Shown here one piece after another: positions 3,485 to 57,857 of a DNA stretch of 64,000 bases. Under the pieces are notes generated by a model. The model ran no database searches. It worked only from the letters and a program-made list of their open reading frames with translations, and was not told where the DNA came from. The stretch covers positions 1,027,458 to 1,091,457 of the forward strand of contig JBDXCV010000003.1 of assembly GCA_039980135.1 (NCBI GenBank), read 5' to 3'. The first letter of the stretch is position 1. Every line of letters starts with the position of its first letter. Source of the stretch: Alphaproteobacteria bacterium. GTDB lineage: Bacteria > Pseudomonadota > Alphaproteobacteria > UBA6615. The translations under genes and the position numbers were made by a program.

Positions 3485-5701
3485 TTAGAGAAAGCTGTAG
3501 GGATCGATGTCCACGCGTACCCGTGCGCCGGAGGGAACCCTGACCTGCGCCAGCCATGCCCGGACAAGGCCCTGGATCGGCTGGTCCAGCCCGGCTTTGA
3601 GCAGGAGCCGCCGTCGATGCTGGCCGCGCAAAAGCGAAAGCGGGGCCGGTGCGGGGCCGAGCACCCGAACGCCGGGGGCGTCGGGCGCGCAGCGCGCCAG
3701 CGCGCGCGACAGATCGTCGGCAACCCGCGGATCGCGGCTTGACACGATAATGGCGGCCAGGCGCCCGAAGGGAGGCCAGGCGCCGGTGCGCCGGGCGTCT
3801 GTCTCGAGCGTCATGAAACCGTCCCGGTTCCCGGTGGCCAGGGCCTGCATGACCGGGTGGTCGGGCTGGAAGGTCTGTATAAGCACCCGGCCCGGGCGTT
3901 CGGCGCGCCCGGCTCTGCCCGATACCTGCTGCAGGACCTGGTATGTCCGTTCGGCCGCGCGCAGGTCCCCGCCGGCGAGGCCCAGATCCGCATCGACGAT
4001 TCCCACGAGAGTGAGGTTGGGGAAATGATGTCCCTTGGCCACCATCTGTGTGCCGATCAGGATGTCGATTTCCTGATTCTCGACCGAATGTACCAACCGC
4101 TGCGCGGCCACCGGGCCCCGCATGGTATCGCTGGTCATGATTTCCAGGCGCGCCTCGGGCAACAACGTTCTGACCTCTTCGGCGATGCGCTCGACACCCG
4201 GACCGCATGCCACCAGCGTGTCGGCCTTGTCGCAGGACGGGCAGTTCGTCGGGATCGGCACTTCGTATCCGCAATGGTGGCATTGCAGCCTTTTTCGGAA
4301 CCGGTGCTCGGTCAGCCAGGCGCTGCAGCTCGGGCAGGCGAAGCGGTGGCCGCAGGTCCGGCACAATGTCAGCGGGGCATAGCCCCGACGGTTCAGGAAC
4401 AGGAGGGCCTGTTCGCCGTCGGCCATGTTCGCGGTCAGTGCGTTTACCAATGGTTCCGACAGGAACCGGTCGGCGCGCATGTCGCCGTCGCGCATGTCGA
4501 TCGTCTCGATCGTCGGCAGCGCCGACAGGCCGAAACGCTCGGGAAGCGCGATCGACTTGTAGCGTTCGCGTTCGACGTTCACACGCGTCTCCAGAGACGG
4601 GGTCGCGGAGGCAACGATGATCGGGCAATCGGCGATCCGGGCGCGTACCACGGCCATGTCGCGACCGTGATACGCCACGCCGTCTTCCTGCTTGAAAGCG
4701 GATTCATGCTCCTCGTCGACGACCACCAGGCCCAGTTCGGGAAACGGCAGGAAAAGTGCCGACCGGGCGCCGACCACGACCCGGGCCTCACCGTCGGCCA
4801 CCGCGCGCCAGGTCTTGCGGCGACGGACCTGTCCGAGGTCCGAATGCCAGACCGCGGGTGCCACACCGAACCGGCGTTCGAACCGGTCGAGCCATTGCGG
4901 TGTCAGGGCGATCTCGGGCAGCAGCACGAGCACTTGCCGGCCGGTCGTCAGGGCGGCGGCGAGCGCCTCGAAATAGACTTCCGTCTTGCCCGAGCCCGTC
5001 ACCCCGTCCAGCAGCGTGACCGCGAAGCAAGCCGCCGCGACGTCCTCGCAAAGCGTATGCGCGGCTCGCGCCTGATCGTCCGACAAGGCCATGCCCGGCC
5101 GGGAGACGTCCGGTGCCGCGAAGGCGGGAGGTGGCGCCAGTTCGATTCTTTCGAGGGCACCCGCATCGGCCAGCCCCTTGATGACGCTTTGCGTGACGCC
5201 GGCCTCGGTCGCCAGGTCGCGTGCTGTCAGGGGTGGCCCGTCGCGCAGCACATCGAGGACCCGTGTCCGCGCCGGAGTCATCCGCAGGCCTTCCGGCAGT
5301 CCCGCCGCCAGATAGGCCGTCACGGGCTTCGGCGGAGCCAGCGCATCGGGAGAGCGCATCGCCATGCGCAGCACCGCGCCAGGCGCGCTGAGCGTATAGG
5401 CGGCGACCCAGTCGACGAAGCGGCGCAGTTCCTCGGGTAGCGGGCGGGTGTCGATCCGGTCGGTGATCGGCCGTAACTTTTTCTCGTCCACATCGCCGGC
5501 GGCCGGGCCCCACACCACACCCGTCATCTCCCGCGAGCCCAGCGGCGCATGCACGAAGTCACCGGGTTGCACGGCCATGCCCGGCGGCACGGTGTAGTCA
5601 TACGGCCCGGCGACCGGCAGCGGCAGCAAAACGCTGATCGTTTCGCCGTCCGCGTCGGTCCGGTCGTCATGTCCGGGTGTAGTGGTGTCGGTCAGGGGCA
5701 T
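3485..5701 (-). CDS. priA: Primosomal protein N' (replication restart helicase PriA)
   Basis: DEAD/DEAH helicase motifs ([12 protein letters not shown]), a Cys-rich zinc-binding region ([13 protein letters not shown]...CHHCGYE...CPSCD) and a C-terminal helicase domain. ATG at 5701 chosen; the ORF track extends to a TTG at 5737. Confidence 0.9.
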
Positions 5702-41746: not shown

Positions 41747-41862
41747 CATAAGCAGCCAGTTGCCTAAGTAGTTGCCGATCAACCTAGTCGGGGTTCGCGG
41801 CGGCGTCGAGACGAGCCGCATGAATTCGCCCCGTCACCCGCACCGGAACAGATCCTGCCGCC

Positions 41863-42510
41863 ATGTCGATGTTGAAGGAACAGCCCGATCTCCGTCATCT
41901 CACCGACCAGTATGAGCTGACCGAGGACGAACTGGATTGGACCTTGCGGGCGGTCATGGAGACCCATCCGCCCGGTGAGGATCTCTGGATCTTCGGCTAT
42001 GGCTCGCTGATGTGGCGGCCCGATTTCCCGTTCGTCGATCGCGCGCGGGCGCTGGTGCATGGCTATCATCGTTCGTTCTGCGTGTACTCCCATGTCTATC
42101 GCGGCACCAGGGAACGGCCGGGCCTCGTGCTGGGGCTCGACAATGGCGGCAGTTGCAGCGGCGTGGCCTACCGGGTCGCCGCCGAACATGCGAGCAGCGC
42201 CGTGGAGTATCTGATCCGCCGGGAGATGGTGACACGGGTCTATATGCCGCGCTGGGTGACGGCCCGGATCGGCGACAAGACGGTCAGGGCCCACACCTAC
42301 ACGGCGGCGCATAATCATGTTCAGTATGCCGGTCGCTTGTCGGAGGACGAGGCGTTACGCCTGATTCTGCAGGGACATGGCCGAAGCGGGCCCAACACCG
42401 AGTATTTGAGCAACACGGTCGAACATCTCGACGCGCTGGGAATCGCCGACCGGCCCCTGCGCCGTCTGCACAAACGGGCGGCGCAAAACGCACCCGACGG
42501 GCCGGTATAA
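41863..42510 (+). CDS. chaC: ChaC family gamma-glutamylcyclotransferase
   Basis: 215 aa. IFGYGSLMWRPDF signature. Catalytic Glu context. Confidence 0.8.
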   Translation: MSMLKEQPDLRHLTDQYELTEDELDWTLRAVMETHPPGEDLWIFGYGSLMWRPDFPFVDRARALVHGYHRSFCVYSHVYRGTRERPGLVLGLDNGGSCSGVAYRVAAEHASSAVEYLIRREMVTRVYMPRWVTARIGDKTVRAHTYTAAHNHVQYAGRLSEDEALRLILQGHGRSGPNTEYLSNTVEHLDALGIADRPLRRLHKRAAQNAPDGPV

Positions 42511-42576
42511 CCCCCACTTGCTAATATCTGAATAATTGCAACCGGTTCCGCCGGGAGATGTGGGCCGGTCGATGGT

Positions 42577-42585
42577 TTATCCACA
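42577..42585 (+). promoter_or_regulatory. Perfect DnaA box TTATCCACA inside an AT-rich intergenic island
   Basis: Exact 9-mer match to the high-affinity DnaA box. Sits in a 340-bp segment of ~50% GC between convergent chaC and plsC. A second identical 9-mer at 42868-42876 lies within the plsC 3' coding end. Confidence 0.4.
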
Positions 42586-42778
42586 GAACGTTAATGAGAG
42601 CCCGTGTAGCGGTTTCGGGGATGTACTGCGGGCCGAATATCAGCGTTCCCGGTCACCCGCGAAGCGAAAAGCGCGGTATTTTCCGATGTTTCACGTTTGG
42701 CTGAAAAGGAAAGTGAGCGCGCTATTGCGGCAGATGAGAAATATAACTGAAATATCGAAAGAATATGGACGCAACTCC

Positions 42779-42812
42779 GCCTGCCGGTTCTCGCAGGCAT
42801 CGATATTTACTC
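42779..42812 (+). terminator. Putative intrinsic terminator-like hairpin (GCCTGC cggttctc GCAGGC followed by ATCGATATTTACT)
   Basis: 6-bp GC stem followed by a T-rich tract on the + strand. Could terminate chaC or an unannotated + strand small transcript arising after the DnaA box. Confidence 0.3.
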
Positions 42813-42851
42813 GCGCCGTATTAGCCGTCCGCTTGGCATTCCTGCGGGCGG

Positions 42852-43610
42852 TCAGTCTTCCACAACTTTATCCACAGCCCGTCGACCATTCAAGTCAGCG
42901 GTTGTCGCAGCGCTTTCCCGATACAACCGTTCCGCCGCAGCTTCGATCGTCGTTTCAAGCTTTTTGATGAATTCGCGTCTTGGAATATCTTCGGCCAGCG
43001 GCGGCAAGAACTCGATTGTGATGACCCCGGGACGAAGCTTGAGCGAGCGTCGTGGCCAGAATAATCCGGAATTCAGCGCCACCGGGACGACAGGCACATC
43101 TAGGGCGCCATGCAGGGCCGAAATACCGGCATGGTACGGCTGCTTCGCGCTCGGCGCGACCCGGGTTCCTTCGGGATAGATTACGATCGGGCGCCCGTCG
43201 GCGAGCGCGGCCCGCGCCATCTTGACCATGCCGCGCAGCGCCGACATGCCGCCGGCCCGGTCGATGGCGATCTGGCGCGTGCGGATCAGACACCAGCCGA
43301 ATAGTGGAATCCAGGTGAGTTCCCGCTTCAGCACAATGGCGGCGTCGCGGACGATCAGATTGATCGCCAGCGTGTCCCAGGCCGACTGGTGTTTGACCGC
43401 GAACAGCGCCGGTCCGTTGGGGATGTTCTCGCGTCCCACGACCCGGTGCGACAGCCCGACGGTGATGCGCAGTAGCCAGAGCGCACCGCGAATCCACAAC
43501 CGGCTATAGGCCATCACCGGGCGGGGTGGCCCGAGCAGGAGCGGCAGCACCAGGAAGCCCGCGAGGGTGGTCCACCCGTAGAACAGGATGGTGAACAGGA
43601 CCGGTCGCAT
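42852..43610 (-). CDS. plsC: 1-acyl-sn-glycerol-3-phosphate acyltransferase
   Basis: 252 aa. Acyltransferase H(X)4D motif KHQSAWD. PEGTR motif. Confidence 0.85.
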   Translation of the reverse strand: MRPVLFTILFYGWTTLAGFLVLPLLLGPPRPVMAYSRLWIRGALWLLRITVGLSHRVVGRENIPNGPALFAVKHQSAWDTLAINLIVRDAAIVLKRELTWIPLFGWCLIRTRQIAIDRAGGMSALRGMVKMARAALADGRPIVIYPEGTRVAPSAKQPYHAGISALHGALDVPVVPVALNSGLFWPRRSLKLRPGVITIEFLPPLAEDIPRREFIKKLETTIEAAAERLYRESAATTADLNGRRAVDKVVED

Positions 43611-43617
43611 GTCGGGG

Positions 43618-44235
43618 TCAGCCCCTTTCCAGTATTTGGGCGGCGAAGACCCGCAGACGGGCTGCCAGATACTTGTTGTATTCCCCGGCCAGCAGGAATG
43701 CGGTGCCGGGCCAGCGCCACCAACGTGTCAGGTGCACATTCTCCGATGTGACCGGGTCAGGCACGATTTTCACGTCGGGCAGGCGCGAATGAAATTCGAG
43801 CAGGCTGCGCGGCATGTGAAAGTCGGCGGTGACGAGGCGCAGGCTGGTGACGCCGTTCGCGGCGACCCACCCGGCCGCCTCGACGGCATTCTCGCGCGTG
43901 TTGCGGGCGGCTCGGCCCAGGGTGACACAGCAATCCAGGGTGTTGGTTTCAAGCTGTGCGGCCGGGATCACGTCGCGCGGTGCCACATTCGGGCCGACAC
44001 CCGAGATCAGCATCTTCCGTGCCGCAGATTGCGCCAGCAAATTTGTGCCGTGCTCAACCCGGCCGCGGCCGCCGGTCAGGACGACGATGGCATCGGTACG
44101 AAGGGCGTCGTCCCGGTCGCCGCTCAATGCCGGGATGCGCTCGACGAACACGAACAGGCCGAACGCCCAGATGAAGATCAGCAGCCCCGCCAGGATGAAG
44201 ATGCGCCGCCAGCGGCGATGTCGCTTGCGGGCCAT
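43618..44235 (-). CDS. DUF218 (YdcF/ElyC-like) domain protein
   Basis: Start at MARKRHRRWRRIFILAGLL (ATG 44233-44235), overlapping the ftsX stop by 1 nt. N-terminal TM. VVLTGGRGR DUF218 core. Confidence 0.7.
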   Translation of the reverse strand: MARKRHRRWRRIFILAGLLIFIWAFGLFVFVERIPALSGDRDDALRTDAIVVLTGGRGRVEHGTNLLAQSAARKMLISGVGPNVAPRDVIPAAQLETNTLDCCVTLGRAARNTRENAVEAAGWVAANGVTSLRLVTADFHMPRSLLEFHSRLPDVKIVPDPVTSENVHLTRWWRWPGTAFLLAGEYNKYLAARLRVFAAQILERG

Positions 44236-45107
44236 CACGGCATGCGGGCGAGCGCGCGCAGGACGGTCAGTCGTGCCGTGAGCATTGCGATGACCACCGC
44301 ACCGGCAGGGACGATCAGGAGTGCGAGCCATTCGCCGATGGTCAGGGTGACGGGCGGGAGGAAGGCCGCGTCGATGCCGCGCCCGACCCATGCGAAGATC
44401 AACAGGACGATGCCCGCCGCCGCCGCGCCGGCGATTCCGCCACGCAGTGACAATTTCATCGCCTGAATCTGGAATTGCCTCGCGATATAGGTGTCGTGGG
44501 CGCCCATCTGGTGCAGCAATTCGATAATGGCCGCGTGGACCGCCAGGCCGCTACGGGTCGTGAAAATCACCGCGACGATGGCTGCCGAGGCGATCAGCGC
44601 CAGGATGACGAAGGCGAGAATTTCAACGGTCCGGCCCAGGTTGATGAGCGCGGAAAGCCACGCCCGGTGGTCGTCGACGGTCGTGCCGGGGACCAATTGA
44701 GACAGCCGGGCCGCAAGCAGGCCGGCATCGAGGCGGGCACCGGCGGACAGTTCGATGTCGATCAGCGCGGGTATGGGAAGTCCGGAATCCACAACTTCTT
44801 CGCCCAGCCACGGAATGAGCAGCGCGCGCGCTTCGCGTGCCGGAACCGGCCGGACGGCGGCGACGCCGGGCGTCGCGTCAAGCAACGTGACCAAACTCTC
44901 GATTTCCGGACCGGTGGCGGAATCCTGCGGCACCTGGACCGTCATCCGTCCGGTCAGGGTGCTGTCCCAACTGTCGATGGTGTCGGAGACGATCAGCGCG
45001 CCGGCGAACATCAGCGCGCCGAGAAAGACCATCAACGCCACGATCCAGGGAAGGAACCGCGTGGACTGGTCGCGCTCGAACGGCAGGTCGGTCCGATGTC
45101 CGAGCAC
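44235..45107 (-). CDS. ftsX: Cell division ABC transporter permease FtsX-like
   Basis: 290 aa. 4 TM helices with a large periplasmic loop. GTG start overlapping the ftsE stop. Confidence 0.8.
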   Translation of the reverse strand: MLGHRTDLPFERDQSTRFLPWIVALMVFLGALMFAGALIVSDTIDSWDSTLTGRMTVQVPQDSATGPEIESLVTLLDATPGVAAVRPVPAREARALLIPWLGEEVVDSGLPIPALIDIELSAGARLDAGLLAARLSQLVPGTTVDDHRAWLSALINLGRTVEILAFVILALIASAAIVAVIFTTRSGLAVHAAIIELLHQMGAHDTYIARQFQIQAMKLSLRGGIAGAAAAGIVLLIFAWVGRGIDAAFLPPVTLTIGEWLALLIVPAGAVVIAMLTARLTVLRALARMP

Positions 45108-45817
45108 TAGGTTGCTTCCGCGTTGGACGTGCCGCCTGCCGAAGCAGACGACGCCACGGTGTGGCGGACGACCAGCTCGCCATCGTCAAGCTGCAGCACC
45201 GGGTGCCCGAACTCCTCCAGCAGCGCATGGTTATGGGTCGCGATGACGATGGTCGTGCCGGCCTTGTTGAGTTCCTCGAACAGATGCATGAGGCGCACCG
45301 CGATATGGTCGTCCACATTGCCGGTGGGTTCATCGGCCAGCAGGAGGCGTGGCCGGTTGATCACGGCGCGCGCGATGGCCACGCGCTGTTGCTGGCCGCC
45401 GGACAATGTCGACGGGCGGGCATCGAGCCGGTCGCCGAGCCCGACCCAGCGCAGCAGTTCGCGCACATGGGTGTCGATCTCGTTGTGCCGCCCACCGTTG
45501 ACGCGCAGGGGCAAGGCGACATTCTCTACGGCTGTCAGATGGTCGATCAGCCGAAAATCCTGAAACACCACGCCGACGCGCCGACGCAGCGCCGGCAGAT
45601 CGCCGCGCGGGGTCACGGATATGTCCTTGTCGAACAGGTGGACCAGTCCGCGCGTGGGACGCAAGGCGAGATACATCAGCTTGAGCAAGGTGGTCTTGCC
45701 GGCGCCGCTGGATCCGGTCAGGAAATGGAACGATCCCGGCGCGAGCGCGAAGCTGACATCGCGCAAAACCTCCGGCCCGATGCCGTAGCGCATTCCGACA
45801 TTTTCGAAGCGCAACAC
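45107..45817 (-). CDS. ftsE: Cell division ATP-binding protein FtsE
   Basis: 236 aa. Walker [13 protein letters not shown] signature LSGGQQQR. Walker [10 protein letters not shown]. Confidence 0.9.
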
Positions 45818-46019
45818 GAAAAGGCGCCTCCGGTTGGGACGGGGGGACCGGGAAATATGCAGATTTCGACTCGGCCCTGTTCACCGATCACGTTGGCATG
45901 ATGGCACCCGGGGGTAAAGCCATGGGGCGGCGGGCAAATACGGATTCGCGATCCGCGTCTGTGAATCGTTTATACTCGGTCTTCAATGTTGATTTACCTG
46001 TGACGGCGATAACCAGACG

Positions 46020-46682
46020 ATGATCCTGAGTTGCCCCGACTGCCACACGCGATTTGCGATCGACGCGGCGCATCTAGCGCCCGATGGCCGACGCGTGAAA
46101 TGCGGCAAGTGTGCCCATGTCTGGTACGAATCGATGCCGGAAGCGGAAGAAGAATCGCCGATTCCCATTGAAGTGACCCCCTATGACCCGGAAGAGGAGT
46201 CCGGGGGCGGCCGGCGCAACGTGCCGGCCCTCCGCCAACTCCGGCCCGGCCGCGGCGCGCGCACGGCCTGGATGGTGTCGGCAGTGCTGCTGGTGGCGAT
46301 TCTGGCCGTTCTCTGGTTTGGCCGCGGGCCGATCGCGCTCGCAGTGCCGCAGGCCGAGGCGTTGTATGCGAGCGTCGGTATCGACGCCTTCCCGCCGCCG
46401 GGGGAAGGGCTTGAAGTGGAGTTCAACGTCTCTGCCGAGGATGGCAAGCTGGCGCTGAAGGGCGAAGTGATCAATGTCGCCAACGGCGTGCGTGACATTC
46501 CCGTGCTCTATGTCCTGATTTCGGATGGCGAGAAAAACACCCTCAAGACATGGTCCTTCACAATCGACACACGGCGTCTCGGCCCCGGTGAACGGGCTTC
46601 GTTTACCTCGCAGACCGGGGAAATACCGGCGAATGCGGCAAACGTTAGTGTTTTGTTTACCAATCCCGACGAAAATCCCTGA
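46020..46682 (+). CDS. MJ0042-type zinc-ribbon protein with TM segment and DUF3426-like C-terminal domain
   Basis: N-terminal CPDC...CGKC zinc ribbon, acidic linker, one TM helix (AWMVSAVLLVAILAVLWF), periplasmic C-terminal domain. Confidence 0.65.
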   Translation: MILSCPDCHTRFAIDAAHLAPDGRRVKCGKCAHVWYESMPEAEEESPIPIEVTPYDPEEESGGGRRNVPALRQLRPGRGARTAWMVSAVLLVAILAVLWFGRGPIALAVPQAEALYASVGIDAFPPPGEGLEVEFNVSAEDGKLALKGEVINVANGVRDIPVLYVLISDGEKNTLKTWSFTIDTRRLGPGERASFTSQTGEIPANAANVSVLFTNPDENP

Positions 46683-46743
46683 CACGTGATCGTCACTCCC
46701 TCCGCCGTCGCGGAGCCTGCCCTGGTGATAGACGATCCAATTC

Positions 46744-46768
46744 CTTGCCCGTGGCGAAGACGGGCAAG
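46744..46768. other. Perfect 9-bp stem hairpin CTTGCCCGT ggcgaag ACGGGCAAG between the zinc-ribbon gene and cpdR
   Basis: Seen directly. No U-tract follows. Possible attenuator or protein-binding site. Confidence 0.3.
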
Positions 46769-46827
46769 ATCGGGGAGGACATCGCAGGCATCGACATGTC
46801 CGTGATGATGAGGGGGTGGAGACAAAA

Positions 46828-47217
46828 ATGGCACGAGTTCTGATAGCTGAAGATGACGGTGCGGTGCGCGAGTTTGTGCGCCGCGCGCTGGTCCATGGCG
46901 GGCATGAGGTGGCGACGGCCAATGACGGTCTCGACGCGCTCGATACGCTGGACGTGGACGAGAATTTCGATTTGCTCATCACCGACATCGTGATGCCGGG
47001 TCTGGATGGCATCGCCCTGGCGCTGAAGGTTGCCAAGGAGCATCCGAAGACGGCCATCCTGATGATGACCGGATATGCCGCCGAACGGCAGCGCGCCCAT
47101 AATCTCGAAGAGCTTATCCACGAGGTGATCGCCAAGCCGTTCAGTCTGAAGCAGATATGCGATGCCGCGGAAGAAGCGATGTCGCAAAGAGGATCGCGAA
47201 GCCGCACGACGCACTGA
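46828..47217 (+). CDS. cpdR: Single-domain response regulator, CpdR-like
   Basis: MARVLIAEDDGAVREF...DLLITDIVMPGLDG...ILMMTGY receiver domain. GGGGGTGGAG RBS. Typical alphaproteobacterial CpdR length and tail. Confidence 0.75.
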   Translation: MARVLIAEDDGAVREFVRRALVHGGHEVATANDGLDALDTLDVDENFDLLITDIVMPGLDGIALALKVAKEHPKTAILMMTGYAAERQRAHNLEELIHEVIAKPFSLKQICDAAEEAMSQRGSRSRTTH

Positions 47218-47252
47218 ACGGGCGCCGCGACGGCACACCGGCCCTCTGGTTC

Positions 47253-49724
47253 CTAGAAGCGGCGCAACAAGCGTTCGAGATAATTCCGCTCGAGCGTCGG
47301 GCGCGTCTGGTCGAGGGCGCGGCTCCGCAATTCGTCGAGAATCTCCAATGCACGGCGGGCCTGCTCGCCATCGCCGATTCCCTGCCGGCCGCTATCGACC
47401 CCGAACGGCTGATCCTCGTTTTCACCCGGCAGGCGGCGCCCCAGCGGATCGAAGCCTTCCTCGCCGGGTTGGGCGAGCCCCTGTTGTTGCCCCTGGCCCT
47501 GACCGGGGCCCTGGCCGGGTTGTGGCAGCAGTTGGAGCGCCATGCTCTGGGCACCCTGTTGAAGCTCGGCCAGCGCGCGCGCCTGATCGCCCAGCGCGCC
47601 GGAAAGGTCGCCGTCCTGGAGCGCGCCTTCGGCATCGCCCATCGCGTCTTCGGCATTGCCCAGATTCTCGGGTATCTGATCCGTCATCTCGCCGAGCCGG
47701 CGCATGACTTCGCCGAGCTGGCGGCGAATTTCATTCTGCGCCTCGCGCAGGCGCTGGGCCTCTTCCTCGGACAGTCGCTCGCCGCGCTGGTTGCGCTGGA
47801 AGACGTCGTCCTGCAGTTCCTGCTGGCGGCGCACCACGTCCTGAAGATCGCGGAGCATCTCCTGCGCCGGTGAATTGCCCTGCTGCTGGAGCTGGTTGGG
47901 GGCGTCGCGCAGGGCCTGAAGCATCTGCTGCATGCGTTCGAGAAGCTGTTCGACGCTTTCCGCGTCACCGAGGCGTGCCATCTGCTCAAGCTGCCGGAGC
48001 AGTTCCTGGATGGCTTGCTGGTCGATGATATCGAGCTCTTCGCCGGCCTCGGGCAGCAACGACAAGTCCATGCCTTCGAGCGCCTGGGAGAGATTCTGCG
48101 CGAGCGCCTCCAGATACCGGTCGAGCGCGGCCCGCAACTCTTCCATGAGCGCCTGGATTTCCTCGTCGCCGGCGCCATTCTCGATCGCCTGGCGCAACTG
48201 CTCCTGGACGTTGGCGAGCTCGCGCTGGGTCAGCGAAAGCGCCCCGTCTTCCAGCCGCAGCGCCGTGTCCCAGAGTTGCGACAGAATGGGTGTGGTGTCG
48301 CTTGTTGCGGGGGCGTGGACCAGCCGTGACCGGGCGGACATCAACGACAGGAAAACCACGACATCATTGTCGAAACGCTGGGGGAAGCTGCCGATATTGT
48401 GGAGCGAACGTGCCACCTCGCGCCGGCTGTCCGGCGAGAGCGCCAGCACACGCCGCTGTTCGACGATTTCGCGCGCCACGGGGTGGTTGAAGCTGCGTTC
48501 CGGTAGCAGCACCGAAAGCCGGTCCGTCTGTCCGGTCTGGCCGCGGCCGTCGGTCGCGGTGAGGCGCACATCGACTTCGAGGCCCGCCCACGGATGTTCC
48601 GTCAGATCGTGAACGCTCACCGCGCTGCCCTCGCGCGGGTCGGGCCGGGGCCGCGGCAGTTCGATGGCGACCGGCCGGAACGACGGCCCGTCGGCCACGC
48701 CGGGCCAGGTGATCTCGGCCGTGACCCCGACGATCCCGTGATCATCCGTGCCGTCATAGCTGAGCTGCAGGGTGTTGCTGGTCGTTCCCTGGGGAGATTC
48801 GACGAAGGTGATTTCCGGTGCGGTGTCCGGCAGGACGTTAATCCGCCATTCGCCGATCGTCCGTCCCGATGCGTTCACCTGCATCGGTTGCGGCCCGATC
48901 CGGTCGAGTGACGCCTCGGTCCGCCAGCTATTCTCCGAGACCGACGTCAGGTCCTGACTTGTGTCGCCGATTTGCAGGGTCGGTGCGCGGCGTGCGTGGC
49001 TGACCTGTGCCAGAAGGGTGCTGCCGACCGGAACCGTGATTTCACCCCCGCCGCTCGTGTCGGGCGCAGAGGCCGCGCCGGGGTCGGCGCTGGCGAGCAG
49101 GCGCGGCGGCAGGTTGGTGTAGTCAGGCGGCGTGATCCAGAGTTCAAGGCTCGCCGAGGGGCCGCTCGCCAGCCCCTGCAAATCCGGCGAGAAGGCCCGC
49201 GCCAACCGGTTGGACGCATCGCTGCCCGCGGCCACCACGCCGATGATGAGTAGCACCCCGAGCCCGATCCGCAGGGCATAGGGGTCGCGACCGGCCAGAT
49301 TCGGATGCGGCCAGCGCAGATGGATATTGCGCGCGGCCGCGGCCGCCTGTGCCAGATGCAGGCGCCAGAGCCGGTCGGTCTCGGGGTCGATGACGCCGAC
49401 GGCCGGTTTGTCGACCATGACCGTCAACGGGCGATGGGGGAGGTTGGAGTCGGTTTCCAGCCGGCGGGTCGCCTCGGCGCCCGTCGGCGGTACGATTCGG
49501 CGGATGCCGCGCCAGGCCTGCAGGGCAAAAACAATGGCGAAACCCAACAGAAGCAGCCCGTGGAGCCAGCCCGGCAGAGCGGCCGGCCCGCCGAGCAGCG
49601 CGAGGGCGAGAAACAGGCCCGCCACCCCGACGGCAGGCCAGAGCGCCGGCCAGGCGCGTTCCCAGAGCATCGCGGCCCGTGCGATGGCGCGCCGCAGACC
49701 GAGGCGCGCGGGGGCCGCCGTCAT
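47253..49724 (-). CDS. DUF4175 / TIGR02302-type large alphaproteobacterial protein (N-terminal TM helices, long Gln/Glu-rich coiled coil)
   Basis: Start at the internal MTAAPARLGL (ATG 49722-49724). 823 aa. Two to three N-terminal TM segments, a long central region, then an extended E/Q/R/L-rich coiled coil and a GQGPGQGQGQQQG low-complexity stretch. Confidence 0.6.
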   Translation of the reverse strand: MTAAPARLGLRRAIARAAMLWERAWPALWPAVGVAGLFLALALLGGPAALPGWLHGLLLLGFAIVFALQAWRGIRRIVPPTGAEATRRLETDSNLPHRPLTVMVDKPAVGVIDPETDRLWRLHLAQAAAAARNIHLRWPHPNLAGRDPYALRIGLGVLLIIGVVAAGSDASNRLARAFSPDLQGLASGPSASLELWITPPDYTNLPPRLLASADPGAASAPDTSGGGEITVPVGSTLLAQVSHARRAPTLQIGDTSQDLTSVSENSWRTEASLDRIGPQPMQVNASGRTIGEWRINVLPDTAPEITFVESPQGTTSNTLQLSYDGTDDHGIVGVTAEITWPGVADGPSFRPVAIELPRPRPDPREGSAVSVHDLTEHPWAGLEVDVRLTATDGRGQTGQTDRLSVLLPERSFNHPVAREIVEQRRVLALSPDSRREVARSLHNIGSFPQRFDNDVVVFLSLMSARSRLVHAPATSDTTPILSQLWDTALRLEDGALSLTQRELANVQEQLRQAIENGAGDEEIQALMEELRAALDRYLEALAQNLSQALEGMDLSLLPEAGEELDIIDQQAIQELLRQLEQMARLGDAESVEQLLERMQQMLQALRDAPNQLQQQGNSPAQEMLRDLQDVVRRQQELQDDVFQRNQRGERLSEEEAQRLREAQNEIRRQLGEVMRRLGEMTDQIPENLGNAEDAMGDAEGALQDGDLSGALGDQARALAELQQGAQSMALQLLPQPGQGPGQGQGQQQGLAQPGEEGFDPLGRRLPGENEDQPFGVDSGRQGIGDGEQARRALEILDELRSRALDQTRPTLERNYLERLLRRF

Positions 49725-56211: not shown

Positions 56212-57249
56212 CTAGCCGATGAGAAGTGCGGCCCGGCCCGTGACTTCCCCACCTTCGACCCGCGCGTGAAGCGCCTCGGCCTCGGTCCAGGGTCGGATGT
56301 CCGTCACCAGCGGCCAGACCTCGCCGCGGGCGACGATGTCGAGCGTTTCCTTGAGGTCGCGGCGCGAGGCGTAGCGGCTGCCGAGGATGACTTTCTCCTT
56401 GTACAGCATGTCGGATGCCGACAGCTGGAAGGTTTTTGCCCCGCCACCCAGGATCACCAGCCGTCCCCGCCGGCCGAGTGCCGCCGCCGCCGTTTCAAGC
56501 GTTGTGTCGCTCGAAACATAGTCGATGGCGACATCGACGCCGCGGCCGTCCGTCATATCCAGCAGCGCCTCGGCGACATTGCCGTCCGCCGCGTCGACCA
56601 CGGCGTCGGCGCTGGCCTTGCGGCAGGCGTCGAGCTTCTCGGTGCCGAGATCGACAGCGATGACCCGGGTCTGCGCTCTTTTTGCCATCATGACCTGATG
56701 AATACCGACGCCGCCGCCCGCCCCGAAGACGGCGACGGTCTCACCGGCCTTGACACCCGCCCTGCCCAGTACCTTGTAGGGGGTCGTGAGCGCGTCGGTG
56801 ATCACGCCGATTTCGGCCGGATGGGCCCGGTGGTTCAGGCCTTCGGGAAGTTTCACGAAGATATGTGCAGGCAGCTTGATGTATTCGGCATAGCCCCCGT
56901 CGCAGGTCATGCCGATGATCCCGACATCGGCGCTGCTCTCGCACAGGGGTTCGAGATCGTTCCGGCACCAGTTGCAGGTGCCGCAGACCAGCATGCCGTA
57001 GACGGTGACGGCATCTCCAACGGCAACATCGGTGACACCGGTACCCACCTCCACGATTTCCGCGGTGATCTCGTGGCCGATGATGCGGGGAAATTCGACC
57101 GGTATGCGCCCGGCCTTGACGTGCTGGATGGTCAGACCGGAGCCGCATGCCAGGACCCGGGCCACGGCTTCGCCCGGTCCGGCGACCGGGTCGGGGACAT
57201 CACGCATCTCGAACGGCGCATTCGGTTGATCGAGTATCAGGGCTTTCAT
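56212..57249 (-). CDS. Zinc-dependent alcohol dehydrogenase family (MDR) oxidoreductase
   Basis: 345 aa. Catalytic Zn ligands (CGSG...H...E). Structural Zn Cys cluster CGTCNWC. GAGGGVG NAD motif. Confidence 0.85.
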   Translation of the reverse strand: MKALILDQPNAPFEMRDVPDPVAGPGEAVARVLACGSGLTIQHVKAGRIPVEFPRIIGHEITAEIVEVGTGVTDVAVGDAVTVYGMLVCGTCNWCRNDLEPLCESSADVGIIGMTCDGGYAEYIKLPAHIFVKLPEGLNHRAHPAEIGVITDALTTPYKVLGRAGVKAGETVAVFGAGGGVGIHQVMMAKRAQTRVIAVDLGTEKLDACRKASADAVVDAADGNVAEALLDMTDGRGVDVAIDYVSSDTTLETAAAALGRRGRLVILGGGAKTFQLSASDMLYKEKVILGSRYASRRDLKETLDIVARGEVWPLVTDIRPWTEAEALHARVEGGEVTGRAALLIG

Positions 57250-57272
57250 GCCGCGTTCCCCCGCGTCGTTTG

Positions 57273-57857
57273 TCAGCCTCGGGTCTGGCCGGGCTCCCAG
57301 AGAATGTCGGCCTTGCCGCCGTCATTCAGTTGGCGCGCGAGGACAAACAGGTGGTCCGACAGGCGATTGGCATATTTGAGCGCGTGGGCGTTGACGGCCT
57401 CGCGGGACGCGAGTTCCGTCAACAGCCGTTCGGCCCGGCGCACGATGGTGCGCGCCACATGCAGATGCGCCGCGGCGGGGCTGCCGCCGGGCAGGATGAA
57501 CGAAGTCAGCGGCGCCAGATGCGCGTTGATGGCGTCGATCTCCTGCTCCAGCCGCGTCACCTGTTCAGCGACAATGCGCAGCGCGCCCTCTGATTTGCCG
57601 GCCGCGCGGGCGTCACTCTCCGGCGTGCACAGGTCGGCGCCGAGATCGAACAGGTCGTTCTGAATGCGCGCGAGCATGGCGTCGGTTTGCGGGTCGCCGC
57701 CGGTGTGCAGCCGGGCCAGCCCGATCACCGCATTGGCCTCGTCCACCGTGCCATAGGCCGCCACCCGCAGGTCATGCTTGGCCACGCGGTCGCCCGAGCC
57801 GAGCGAGGTATCGCCGCTGTCGCCGCCGCGGGTATAGATCTTCGTGAGCTGGACCAT
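57273..57857 (-). CDS. ATP:cob(I)alamin adenosyltransferase, PduO/MMAB type
   Basis: 194 aa. MVQLTKIYTRGGDSGDTSL N-terminus and helical bundle typical of the PduO-type ATR. Confidence 0.8.
   Translation of the reverse strand: MVQLTKIYTRGGDSGDTSLGSGDRVAKHDLRVAAYGTVDEANAVIGLARLHTGGDPQTDAMLARIQNDLFDLGADLCTPESDARAAGKSEGALRIVAEQVTRLEQEIDAINAHLAPLTSFILPGGSPAAAHLHVARTIVRRAERLLTELASREAVNAHALKYANRLSDHLFVLARQLNDGGKADILWEPGQTRG

Follow-up and report, generated by a model that had tools for sequence, protein, structure and literature searches.

An apparently orphaned, nrdJ-derived DnaA-box module between convergent chaC and plsC genes in an alphaproteobacterial lineage

Introduction

The window considered here (a 64-kb stretch of contig JBDXCV010000003.1, from the Alphaproteobacteria bacterium assembly GCA_039980135.1) contains an adenine-plus-thymine-rich (AT-rich) spacer between the convergent genes chaC and plsC, with binding-site sequences (boxes) for the initiator protein DnaA at both of its ends. 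The best explanation of that spacer, to which we assign a probability of roughly 0.7, is that it represents an orphaned control module of 300 bp, derived from the upstream region and first codons of the ribonucleotide reductase (RNR) gene nrdJ, which would still be under selection in a clade that has lost the gene itself. The conservation of its boxes indicates that the module probably still binds DnaA. An earlier note on this DNA, made from its letters and a list of its open reading frames (ORFs), had suggested a DnaA regulatory or titration site at this position; the boxes appear to be both real and selected, and a role for DnaA survives as a predicted reading of the locus.

Three DnaA boxes and their conservation

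The two perfect boxes listed in the earlier note (boxes 1 and 2; Table 1) are indeed exact matches to TTATCCACA on the plus strand, and are the sole occurrences of that word on either strand of the window. Dinucleotide-preserving shuffles contained a mean of 0.10 perfect boxes per 64 kb, and a count of two was reached in one of 100 shuffles. Translation of plsC agrees with the further statement that the second perfect box encodes part of the C-terminus of its product. A third, imperfect box (box 2a), absent from the earlier note, lies beside box 2, such that the two form a direct tandem pair (TCTTCCACA-ACT-TTATCCACA, at 42856-42876) with a 3-bp gap and a start-to-start distance of 12 bp. Box 1 and the tandem pair display the same orientation and are separated by 291 bp.

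A scan of metagenomes for TCCACAANNTTATCCACA returned 120 contigs from unrelated bacteria, with guanine-plus-cytosine (GC) contents of 26-70% and, in some cases, with oriC-like arrays of boxes; a plsC, nrdJ or chaC context was found in none of the 120. Those matches show only that the spacing within the tandem pair is a general arrangement of DnaA boxes.

The conservation of the module was assessed using a search with PlsC, limited to one genome per species, that yielded 80 loci (referred to below by L numbers). The 26 closest of these, with PlsC identities of 61-91%, make up together with the window a set of 27 sequences; the window and 22 of the related loci (that is, 23 genomes) constitute the window's clade. 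The relatives of the window are labelled either Rhodospirillaceae or Alphaproteobacteria. Synteny comparison shows that none of the 26 closest relatives lacks the AT-rich island at this position, and that each of them carries both perfect boxes in unchanged orientation. The TCCACAA core of box 2a is almost invariant across the 27 sequences, 20 of which display a box with no more than two mismatches at that position. At 22 loci the module is conserved in the same arrangement, at a non-promoter site between convergent genes.

The distance between the boxes is conserved to a similar degree. The spacing from box 1 to box 2 is exactly 291 bp in 17 of the 27 sequences and falls between 289 and 293 bp in 25 of them; in the remaining two it is reduced by 11 and 13 bp, corresponding to approximately one helical turn. 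The adjacent flank, from the chaC stop codon to box 1, serves as an internal control: because it varies from 10 to 577 nucleotides among the same relatives, the fixed length of the module is not a general property of the region.

The DNA between the boxes displays little of this conservation. The two main subgroups share 33% identity across the interior (shuffled sequence gives approximately 25%) and 95% in the columns of the boxes. In a 2.2-kb alignment that spans plsC, the spacer and chaC from the 23 genomes, invariant runs of at least 6 nucleotides are confined to the boxes of the tandem pair; box 2 forms the longest invariant run of the entire region, and the TGTGGA of box 2a is likewise invariant. 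(In a few sequences that contain large insertions, that automatic alignment misplaced box 1, for which an anchored alignment and the positions of exact matches were preferred.) The alignments, together with the measured spacings, establish purifying selection on the boxes and on the distance between them.

Since the tandem pair overlaps the last codons of plsC in the window, the earlier note had allowed that its second box might be coincidental. The pair is retained across several different plsC contexts: it is read as VDKVVE, or in another frame as CG followed by a stop codon, or is located after the end of the gene. The C-terminal tail of PlsC varies in length and in frame among L002-L027, with its end falling ahead of the pair, inside it or beyond it; the TAA of the box itself serves as the plsC stop codon in L021, L022, L024 and L025. 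Because the pair is conserved in different frames and contexts, it is the DNA that is conserved rather than the peptide, and a box that is part of the most conserved sequence of the region can no longer be regarded as a coincidence. The last residues of PlsC seem to be dictated by the DNA site, which for purposes of annotation would mean that the final plsC codons are shaped here by a DNA-binding site and not by protein function.

Two of the related loci carry additional coding sequence next to the module. In L025, the stretch from chaC to box 1 contains an inserted ORF of 181 amino acids with a P-loop (motif GGASGSGKT; L025:5054-5599, on the minus strand of that locus), and a shorter and apparently degraded copy of it is found in L023 (at approximately 4913-5302); the 291-bp module beside that insertion is untouched.

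Origin from an nrdJ control region

The ancestry of the module can be traced through four related loci (L021, L022, L024 and L026) at which a gene of 757 amino acids, on the same strand as plsC, lies between plsC and chaC. That gene is nrdJ, which encodes a class II, B12-dependent ribonucleotide reductase (Ribonuc_red_lgC, E = 1e-121, in addition to the lgN and TSCPD domains). At all four loci the tandem pair is found 217 nucleotides upstream of the nrdJ start codon, and box 1 is found inside the gene, at nucleotides 75-83 (codons 25-27, within P-V-D-K/N), 291 bp from box 2; the equivalent in these sister lineages of the interior of the window's module is the nrdJ promoter, its leader, and its first 24 codons. 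Many of the more distant relatives share the gene order ftsE-ftsX-DUF218-plsC-nrdJ, frequently with a convergent chaC after it, and this order therefore represents the ancestral state; within it, the tandem pair is located 200-280 nucleotides ahead of nrdJ.

The same association of boxes with nrdJ extends beyond the closest loci. Across 39 nrdJ loci, a tandem of the form TGTGG-N7-TGTGG is located 200-430 nucleotides upstream of the gene in 21, and TGTGGAYAA occupies nucleotides 75-83 in 14; twelve of those 14 also possess the tandem, and the other two are found among the 18 loci that do not. At L031 and L076, a sigma-70-like promoter is recognized between the upstream tandem and the intragenic box. 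In the nrdJ sequences compared, codons ending in T are found at the intragenic box (CCT, as well as GAT in the L021 clade), and we read these as atypical for such GC-rich genomes.

Two further arrangements were observed upstream of nrdJ. In L045, a Stellaceae metagenome-assembled genome, four DnaA-type boxes are found in a row approximately 160-207 nucleotides upstream of the gene (L045:2773-2830), consisting of two perfect TGTGGATAA boxes 12 bp apart that are followed by TGTGGATTA and TGTGGACAA, in what amounts to an expanded version of the tandem pair. A separate conserved word, (A)ACATAACA(A/G)GAACA, occurs approximately 10-30 nucleotides upstream of the -35 element of the predicted nrdJ promoter in the distant relatives L031, L034, L053, L071, L073 and L076; it may be a site for another regulator, and the window does not contain it.

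In the window's clade, nrdJ is absent from the plsC-chaC site (at the 22 related loci as well as in the window). No RNR gene follows the boxes in the window, and a tblastn search with NrdJ found no match within its 64 kb, such that boxes at the promoter of an RNR gene are a feature of the nrdJ-bearing relatives and not of the window itself. The first 24 codons of nrdJ are unconserved throughout the clade, and in the window an in-frame TAA is found three codons before box 1. NrdJ homologues fall into one group at 81-86% (the L021 clade) and another at no more than 71%; three members of the latter group are all found in the ancestral plsC-nrdJ context, in other lineages. These groupings and contexts suggest that nrdJ was lost in the window's clade rather than relocated.

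Gene order and the positions of homologous boxes establish both that the module descends from an nrdJ control region and that nrdJ has been lost at this locus. Because nrdJ is ancestral here and the module has been retained, the AT-rich island is the leftover of a deletion and not an insertion. The suggestion of the earlier note that it might be a remnant of foreign DNA is contradicted by that history and by the synteny of the island in 26 relatives.

Composition and interior of the module

The spacer comprises 341 bp (42511-42851), between the stop codons of chaC (42510) and plsC (42852), and the convergence of those two genes upon it, as described in the earlier note, is confirmed by the positions of their ORFs and by Pfam matches. 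Its GC content is 53.7%, as compared to a mean of 64.1% for the window; the earlier note was correct in describing an AT-rich island, but slightly overstated the contrast (approximately 50% against 66%). Equally AT-rich segments of 341 nucleotides make up 0.35% of the window total, and the segment of that length with the lowest GC content in the 64 kb (42677-43017, 51.3%) takes in part of the spacer together with the end of plsC. The spacers of the relatives display GC contents 7-14 points below those of the surrounding loci. The earlier note had anticipated that relatives with neither AT-richness nor a DnaA box in this spacer would speak against its proposal, and the opposite is found, in that both features are present in all of the relatives.

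Several short blocks within and next to the module are conserved in part or all of the clade (Table 1). The words GCTCACT and TCACTTT are present in 14-15 of the 23 clade members and in none of 36 nrdJ upstream regions, and beyond DnaA-box words no motif was found that is common to the window's clade and the nrdJ upstream regions. The AGTAAA part (on the minus strand) of the AT-rich block at 42806-42824 is located approximately 66 nucleotides from box 2, which is the same distance as in the nrdJ-bearing L021 clade. Binding sites of the CtrA-like (TTAA-N7-TTAA), NrdR-box, sigma-54, extracytoplasmic function sigma, IHF and CcrM (GANTC) types were considered by eye for the interior blocks, and none was consistent across subgroups.

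Table 1. Features of the chaC-plsC spacer and its margins, in window coordinates
Feature	Position	Strand	Description
DnaA box 1	42577..42585	+	Perfect TTATCCACA; homologue of the box at nrdJ nucleotides 75-83 (codons 25-27) in sister lineages
DnaA box 2a	42856..42864	+	TCTTCCACA, 7/9 match; upstream member of direct tandem pair
DnaA box 2	42868..42876	+	Perfect TTATCCACA; within last plsC codons (AVDKVVED*)
Module interior	42586..42855		Length conserved, sequence largely free; no gene
Clade-specific block GAAAAGGAAAGTGAGCGCGCTATTGCGGCAG	42703..42733		Conserved in subgroup A, partly in subgroup B; absent from nrdJ-bearing relatives
Small block TAACTGAAATA	42744..42754		Conserved; AAGTAAAAC in subgroup B
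AT-rich block TTTACTCGCGCCGTATTAG	42806..42824		Conserved; TTTAYT-N7-TATTA
Block TTGCTAATATCTGAATAATTGCAA	42518..42541		Between chaC stop and box 1; conserved in closest subgroup only; outside module
Hairpin GCCTGC-N8-GCAGGC	42779..42798	+	This genome only; outside conserved element
chaC	41863..42510	+	Pfam ChaC, E = 1.7e-42
plsC	42852..43610	-	Pfam Acyltransferase, E = 1e-22

Other features of the window

The terminator-like hairpin described in the earlier note exists, but is not followed by a run of T residues and was not called by a terminator scan; its stem is not kept in close relatives (L002-L004 and others). The same scan recognized no intrinsic terminator after either chaC or plsC (at 42511-42851 and 41822-41862).

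Elsewhere in the window, AT skew is positive (by no more than +0.06, in 4-kb windows) only from approximately 40 to 48 kb, and is negative in the remainder, while GC skew keeps its sign; the local rise in AT skew at 42000-48000 is probably an effect of gene orientation. A minus-strand ORF at 44235-45107 has no Pfam match at E values up to 1e-5. Its position is occupied in relatives by an unannotated gene of 266-295 amino acids, between those for an ABC ATPase and DUF218, the product of which is presumably FtsX-like. A plus-strand ORF of 465 amino acids at 56266-57663 also has no Pfam match at E values up to 1e-5.

Proposed mechanism and alternative explanations

The history and function that we favor can be described as follows. 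In the ancestral state, the tandem pair upstream of nrdJ and box 1 within it would have bracketed the promoter and leader of that gene, and DnaA bound at both ends may, by analogy with other RNR genes, have controlled the promoter, so as to couple the supply of deoxynucleotides to the status of replication. In the window's clade, the part of nrdJ downstream of box 1 would then have been deleted and the first 24 codons would have decayed, with the three boxes and their spacing remaining nearly invariant as the DNA between them was randomized. DnaA would still occupy all three boxes, and the two ends of the module would cooperate, either through a DnaA-bridged loop or within some other phased nucleoprotein complex; the fact that the spacing tolerates changes of only 2 bp in either direction, or of approximately one helical turn, suggests that the ends face each other in this manner. 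The present role of the module may be that of a chromosomal DnaA-binding site, which acts by titration or upon the state of DnaA, or alternatively that of a DnaA-controlled promoter with a non-coding transcript that would extend into chaC in the antisense direction. The binding or titration role is slightly preferred, as the module contains no conserved promoter, terminator, ORF or RNA structure.

A more specific version of this proposal is offered with considerable reserve, as we consider it rather more likely to be wrong than right: the module may be a free-standing DnaA element of marine Rhodospirillales-like Alphaproteobacteria, in which a co-opted nrdJ control region forms a phase-locked loop of 291 bp and acts on DnaA by titration or through its nucleotide state. 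Such an element, if real, would be a functional counterpart of datA and DARS, or of the DnaA-box clusters of Bacillus. We know of no comparable element in Alphaproteobacteria.

Several observations weigh against a module maintained for DnaA binding in itself. Three boxes are few in comparison to established titration loci, such as datA or the Bacillus clusters with 4-8 boxes, and a dense cluster of at least 4-5 boxes is not found here, where three are distributed over 300 bp. The clade-specific blocks at 42703-42733, 42744-42754 and 42806-42824 indicate that something besides DnaA is probably read at this site, and the interior blocks fit a promoter, or the site of another protein, about as well as they fit pure titration. 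The spacing of the boxes is 297-348 bp at more distant nrdJ loci, and the constraint to 291 bp is therefore specific to the clade. Finally, the scan that found no promoter in the window also fails on L021, where nrdJ must have one (it is positive in L031 and L076), and the negative scan of the window is therefore weak evidence.

The strongest of the alternatives is in fact a sub-case of the favored reading, in which transcription is the selected function: the module would be a working DnaA-controlled promoter, for either a minus-strand non-coding RNA antisense to the 3' end of chaC or a clade-specific short RNA on either strand. We regard that alternative as possible but doubtful. The region served as promoter and leader in the ancestral state, it retains clade-specific blocks in its interior, and the AGTAAA block keeps its distance to box 2 in clades with and without nrdJ; in addition, transcripts may well cross the spacer, given that chaC and plsC are without recognizable intrinsic terminators. 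Set against these points, scans of the spacer for a consensus sigma-70-like promoter and for a terminator were negative on both strands, and the would-be transcript is mostly unconserved. Rfam provided no match in the whole window at the gathering threshold, in 42400-42950 at E values up to 10, or at seven related loci, and a scan for transfer RNA and transfer-messenger RNA gave no match. Folding of the single sequence yielded z scores of -0.08 and +0.02 for the two strands, and RNAalifold analysis of 270 nucleotides from 12 close sequences yielded -1.6 and -7.5 kcal/mol for the two strands, with essentially no compensatory changes. The same results, together with the lack of conservation of the hairpin, leave little room for the plus-strand small RNA, ending at that hairpin, that the earlier note had put forward.

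It is improbable that the module is a neutral relic, that is, a decaying 5' stump of nrdJ whose apparent conservation reflects nothing beyond shared ancestry. It clearly arose by deletion, what was left of the nrdJ coding sequence has decayed, and no gene, RNA or promoter has been found inside it, all of which a relic would also display. A relic would, however, lose its boxes and drift in length: the interior is approximately 33% identical across the 23 genomes, yet 9, 9 and 7 positions of the three boxes are essentially invariant, and the length of the module is held to within 2 bp in either direction beside a flank that varies from 10 to 577 nucleotides. The retention of both boxes and length therefore argues that the module is not such a relic.

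Still harder to sustain is the reading of the spacer as oriC, or as a secondary origin, of this lineage. In favor of an origin, the spacer combines AT-richness with a perfect DnaA box at either end, one of them in a tandem pair such as also occurs in the oriC-like clusters of unrelated contigs, and its conserved blocks are split by free sequence of fixed length, which is the classic pattern of enterobacterial oriC. The wider surroundings speak otherwise. GC skew falls below zero in a single 4-kb window of the 64 kb, and is positive on both sides of 42.5 kb; minus-strand genes dominate on both sides of the spacer, with no switch of gene strand at it, and the two flanking genes point toward the site instead of away from it. 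There are three boxes only: no conserved weak boxes (with up to two mismatches) were found inside the module in the 27 sequences, no DnaA-trio array or unwinding element was seen by eye beside the tandem pair, and no repeated AT-rich units or 13-mers were seen in the spacer. Approximately 25 window genes that were scanned with Pfam (including atpGA, priA, suc/sdh, argH and an ftsEX-like pair), plus the listed neighbors, include no dnaA, dnaN, hemE, parAB or gidAB, and what forms the module here corresponds in sister lineages to the sequence ahead of nrdJ and the beginning of that gene. The proximity to oriC that the earlier note had raised is not borne out by these observations.

Least credible of all is a small protein, encoded by the 143-codon plus-strand ORF at 42536-42967 (which exists, as the earlier note reported), by a 69-codon minus-strand ORF at 42591-42800, or as a shortened N-terminal peptide of NrdJ, for although both ORFs are present in the window and an ATG-initiated frame can be read through box 1 in the alignment of L003, neither ORF has a Pfam match, differences of 1-2 bp in box spacing among relatives would break the frame, the nrdJ frame of the window is closed by the TAA before box 1, subgroups share no more than about 33% identity in the interior, and most of the long plus-strand ORF lies antisense to plsC, as often happens by artefact in GC-rich DNA.

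The presence of DnaA boxes ahead of RNR genes was already known; what is new at this locus is a control region that appears to have outlived its gene. The clade constitutes a natural experiment in which the regulated gene has been deleted and the boxes and their spacing have been under strong selection in at least 22 diverged genomes. Their retention after the loss of the gene would therefore mean that the complex of DnaA with this DNA is valuable in itself. Control of DnaA in Alphaproteobacteria is otherwise attributed to HdaA, proteolysis and CtrA, and if the value of the complex does lie in the control of DnaA availability or state, then the module would be a first datA-like or cluster-like candidate in that class. 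The fixed spacing of 291 bp also provides a simple and testable prediction regarding cooperation between distant DnaA boxes.

Comparison with known systems

The ancestral arrangement most closely recalls the regulation of RNR genes by DnaA, which acts on E. coli nrdAB through three boxes and has been proposed to act likewise on the RNR genes of C. crescentus and B. subtilis; such regulation ties synthesis of deoxynucleotides to the status of the initiator (PMC8203912), as would also be the case in the sister lineages of the window. As at promoters of the nrdAB type, high-affinity boxes are found upstream of the RNR gene, and in the sister lineages the boxes bracket the nrdJ promoter and leader. 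The present system differs in that the RNR is of class II (nrdJ) rather than class Ia, in that codons 25-27 of the gene itself contain one of the boxes, and in that the two ends are separated by a fixed distance of approximately 290 bp; in the window, furthermore, the regulated gene is gone.

Complexes of DnaA with its boxes also act as transcription roadblocks, as for the asnC and mioC transcripts of E. coli. The boxes described here are likewise located at the ends of convergent units without recognizable intrinsic terminators. Both perfect boxes of the module are, however, in the same orientation, and so face the two incoming transcripts in opposite ways.

The E. coli datA locus, for which PMC8203912 cites Kasho and Katayama (2013), is a non-origin site of DnaA-ATP hydrolysis and titration, with perfect boxes and with DNA that must be bent so that bound DnaA molecules interact. 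The module resembles datA in being a non-origin chromosomal site at which perfect TTATCCACA boxes are separated by intervening DNA. It differs from datA, which possesses at least five boxes and depends on an IHF site, in its smaller number of boxes and in that no IHF site is evident by eye, although no formal scan for one was made; datA also belongs to a different phylum-level lineage and shares no homology with the module.

A cluster of DnaA boxes between the convergent genes gcp and ydiF of Bacillus subtilis, which is stably bound by DnaA and conserved across species, has been described as 'uncharacteristic for transcriptional regulation', with a role that is either unclear or tied to the amount of available DnaA (PMC2533591). 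That cluster consists of eight boxes, four of them perfect, within approximately 50 bp, as compared to three boxes, two of them perfect, distributed with fixed spacing over 300 bp in the window; the module further differs in belonging to Alphaproteobacteria and in that its origin from the control region of a gene can be traced. The two have in common conserved consensus boxes at the 3' ends of convergent genes, and by that analogy the Bacillus gcp-ydiF cluster would be the closest precedent for the binding or titration role that is predicted for the orphaned module.

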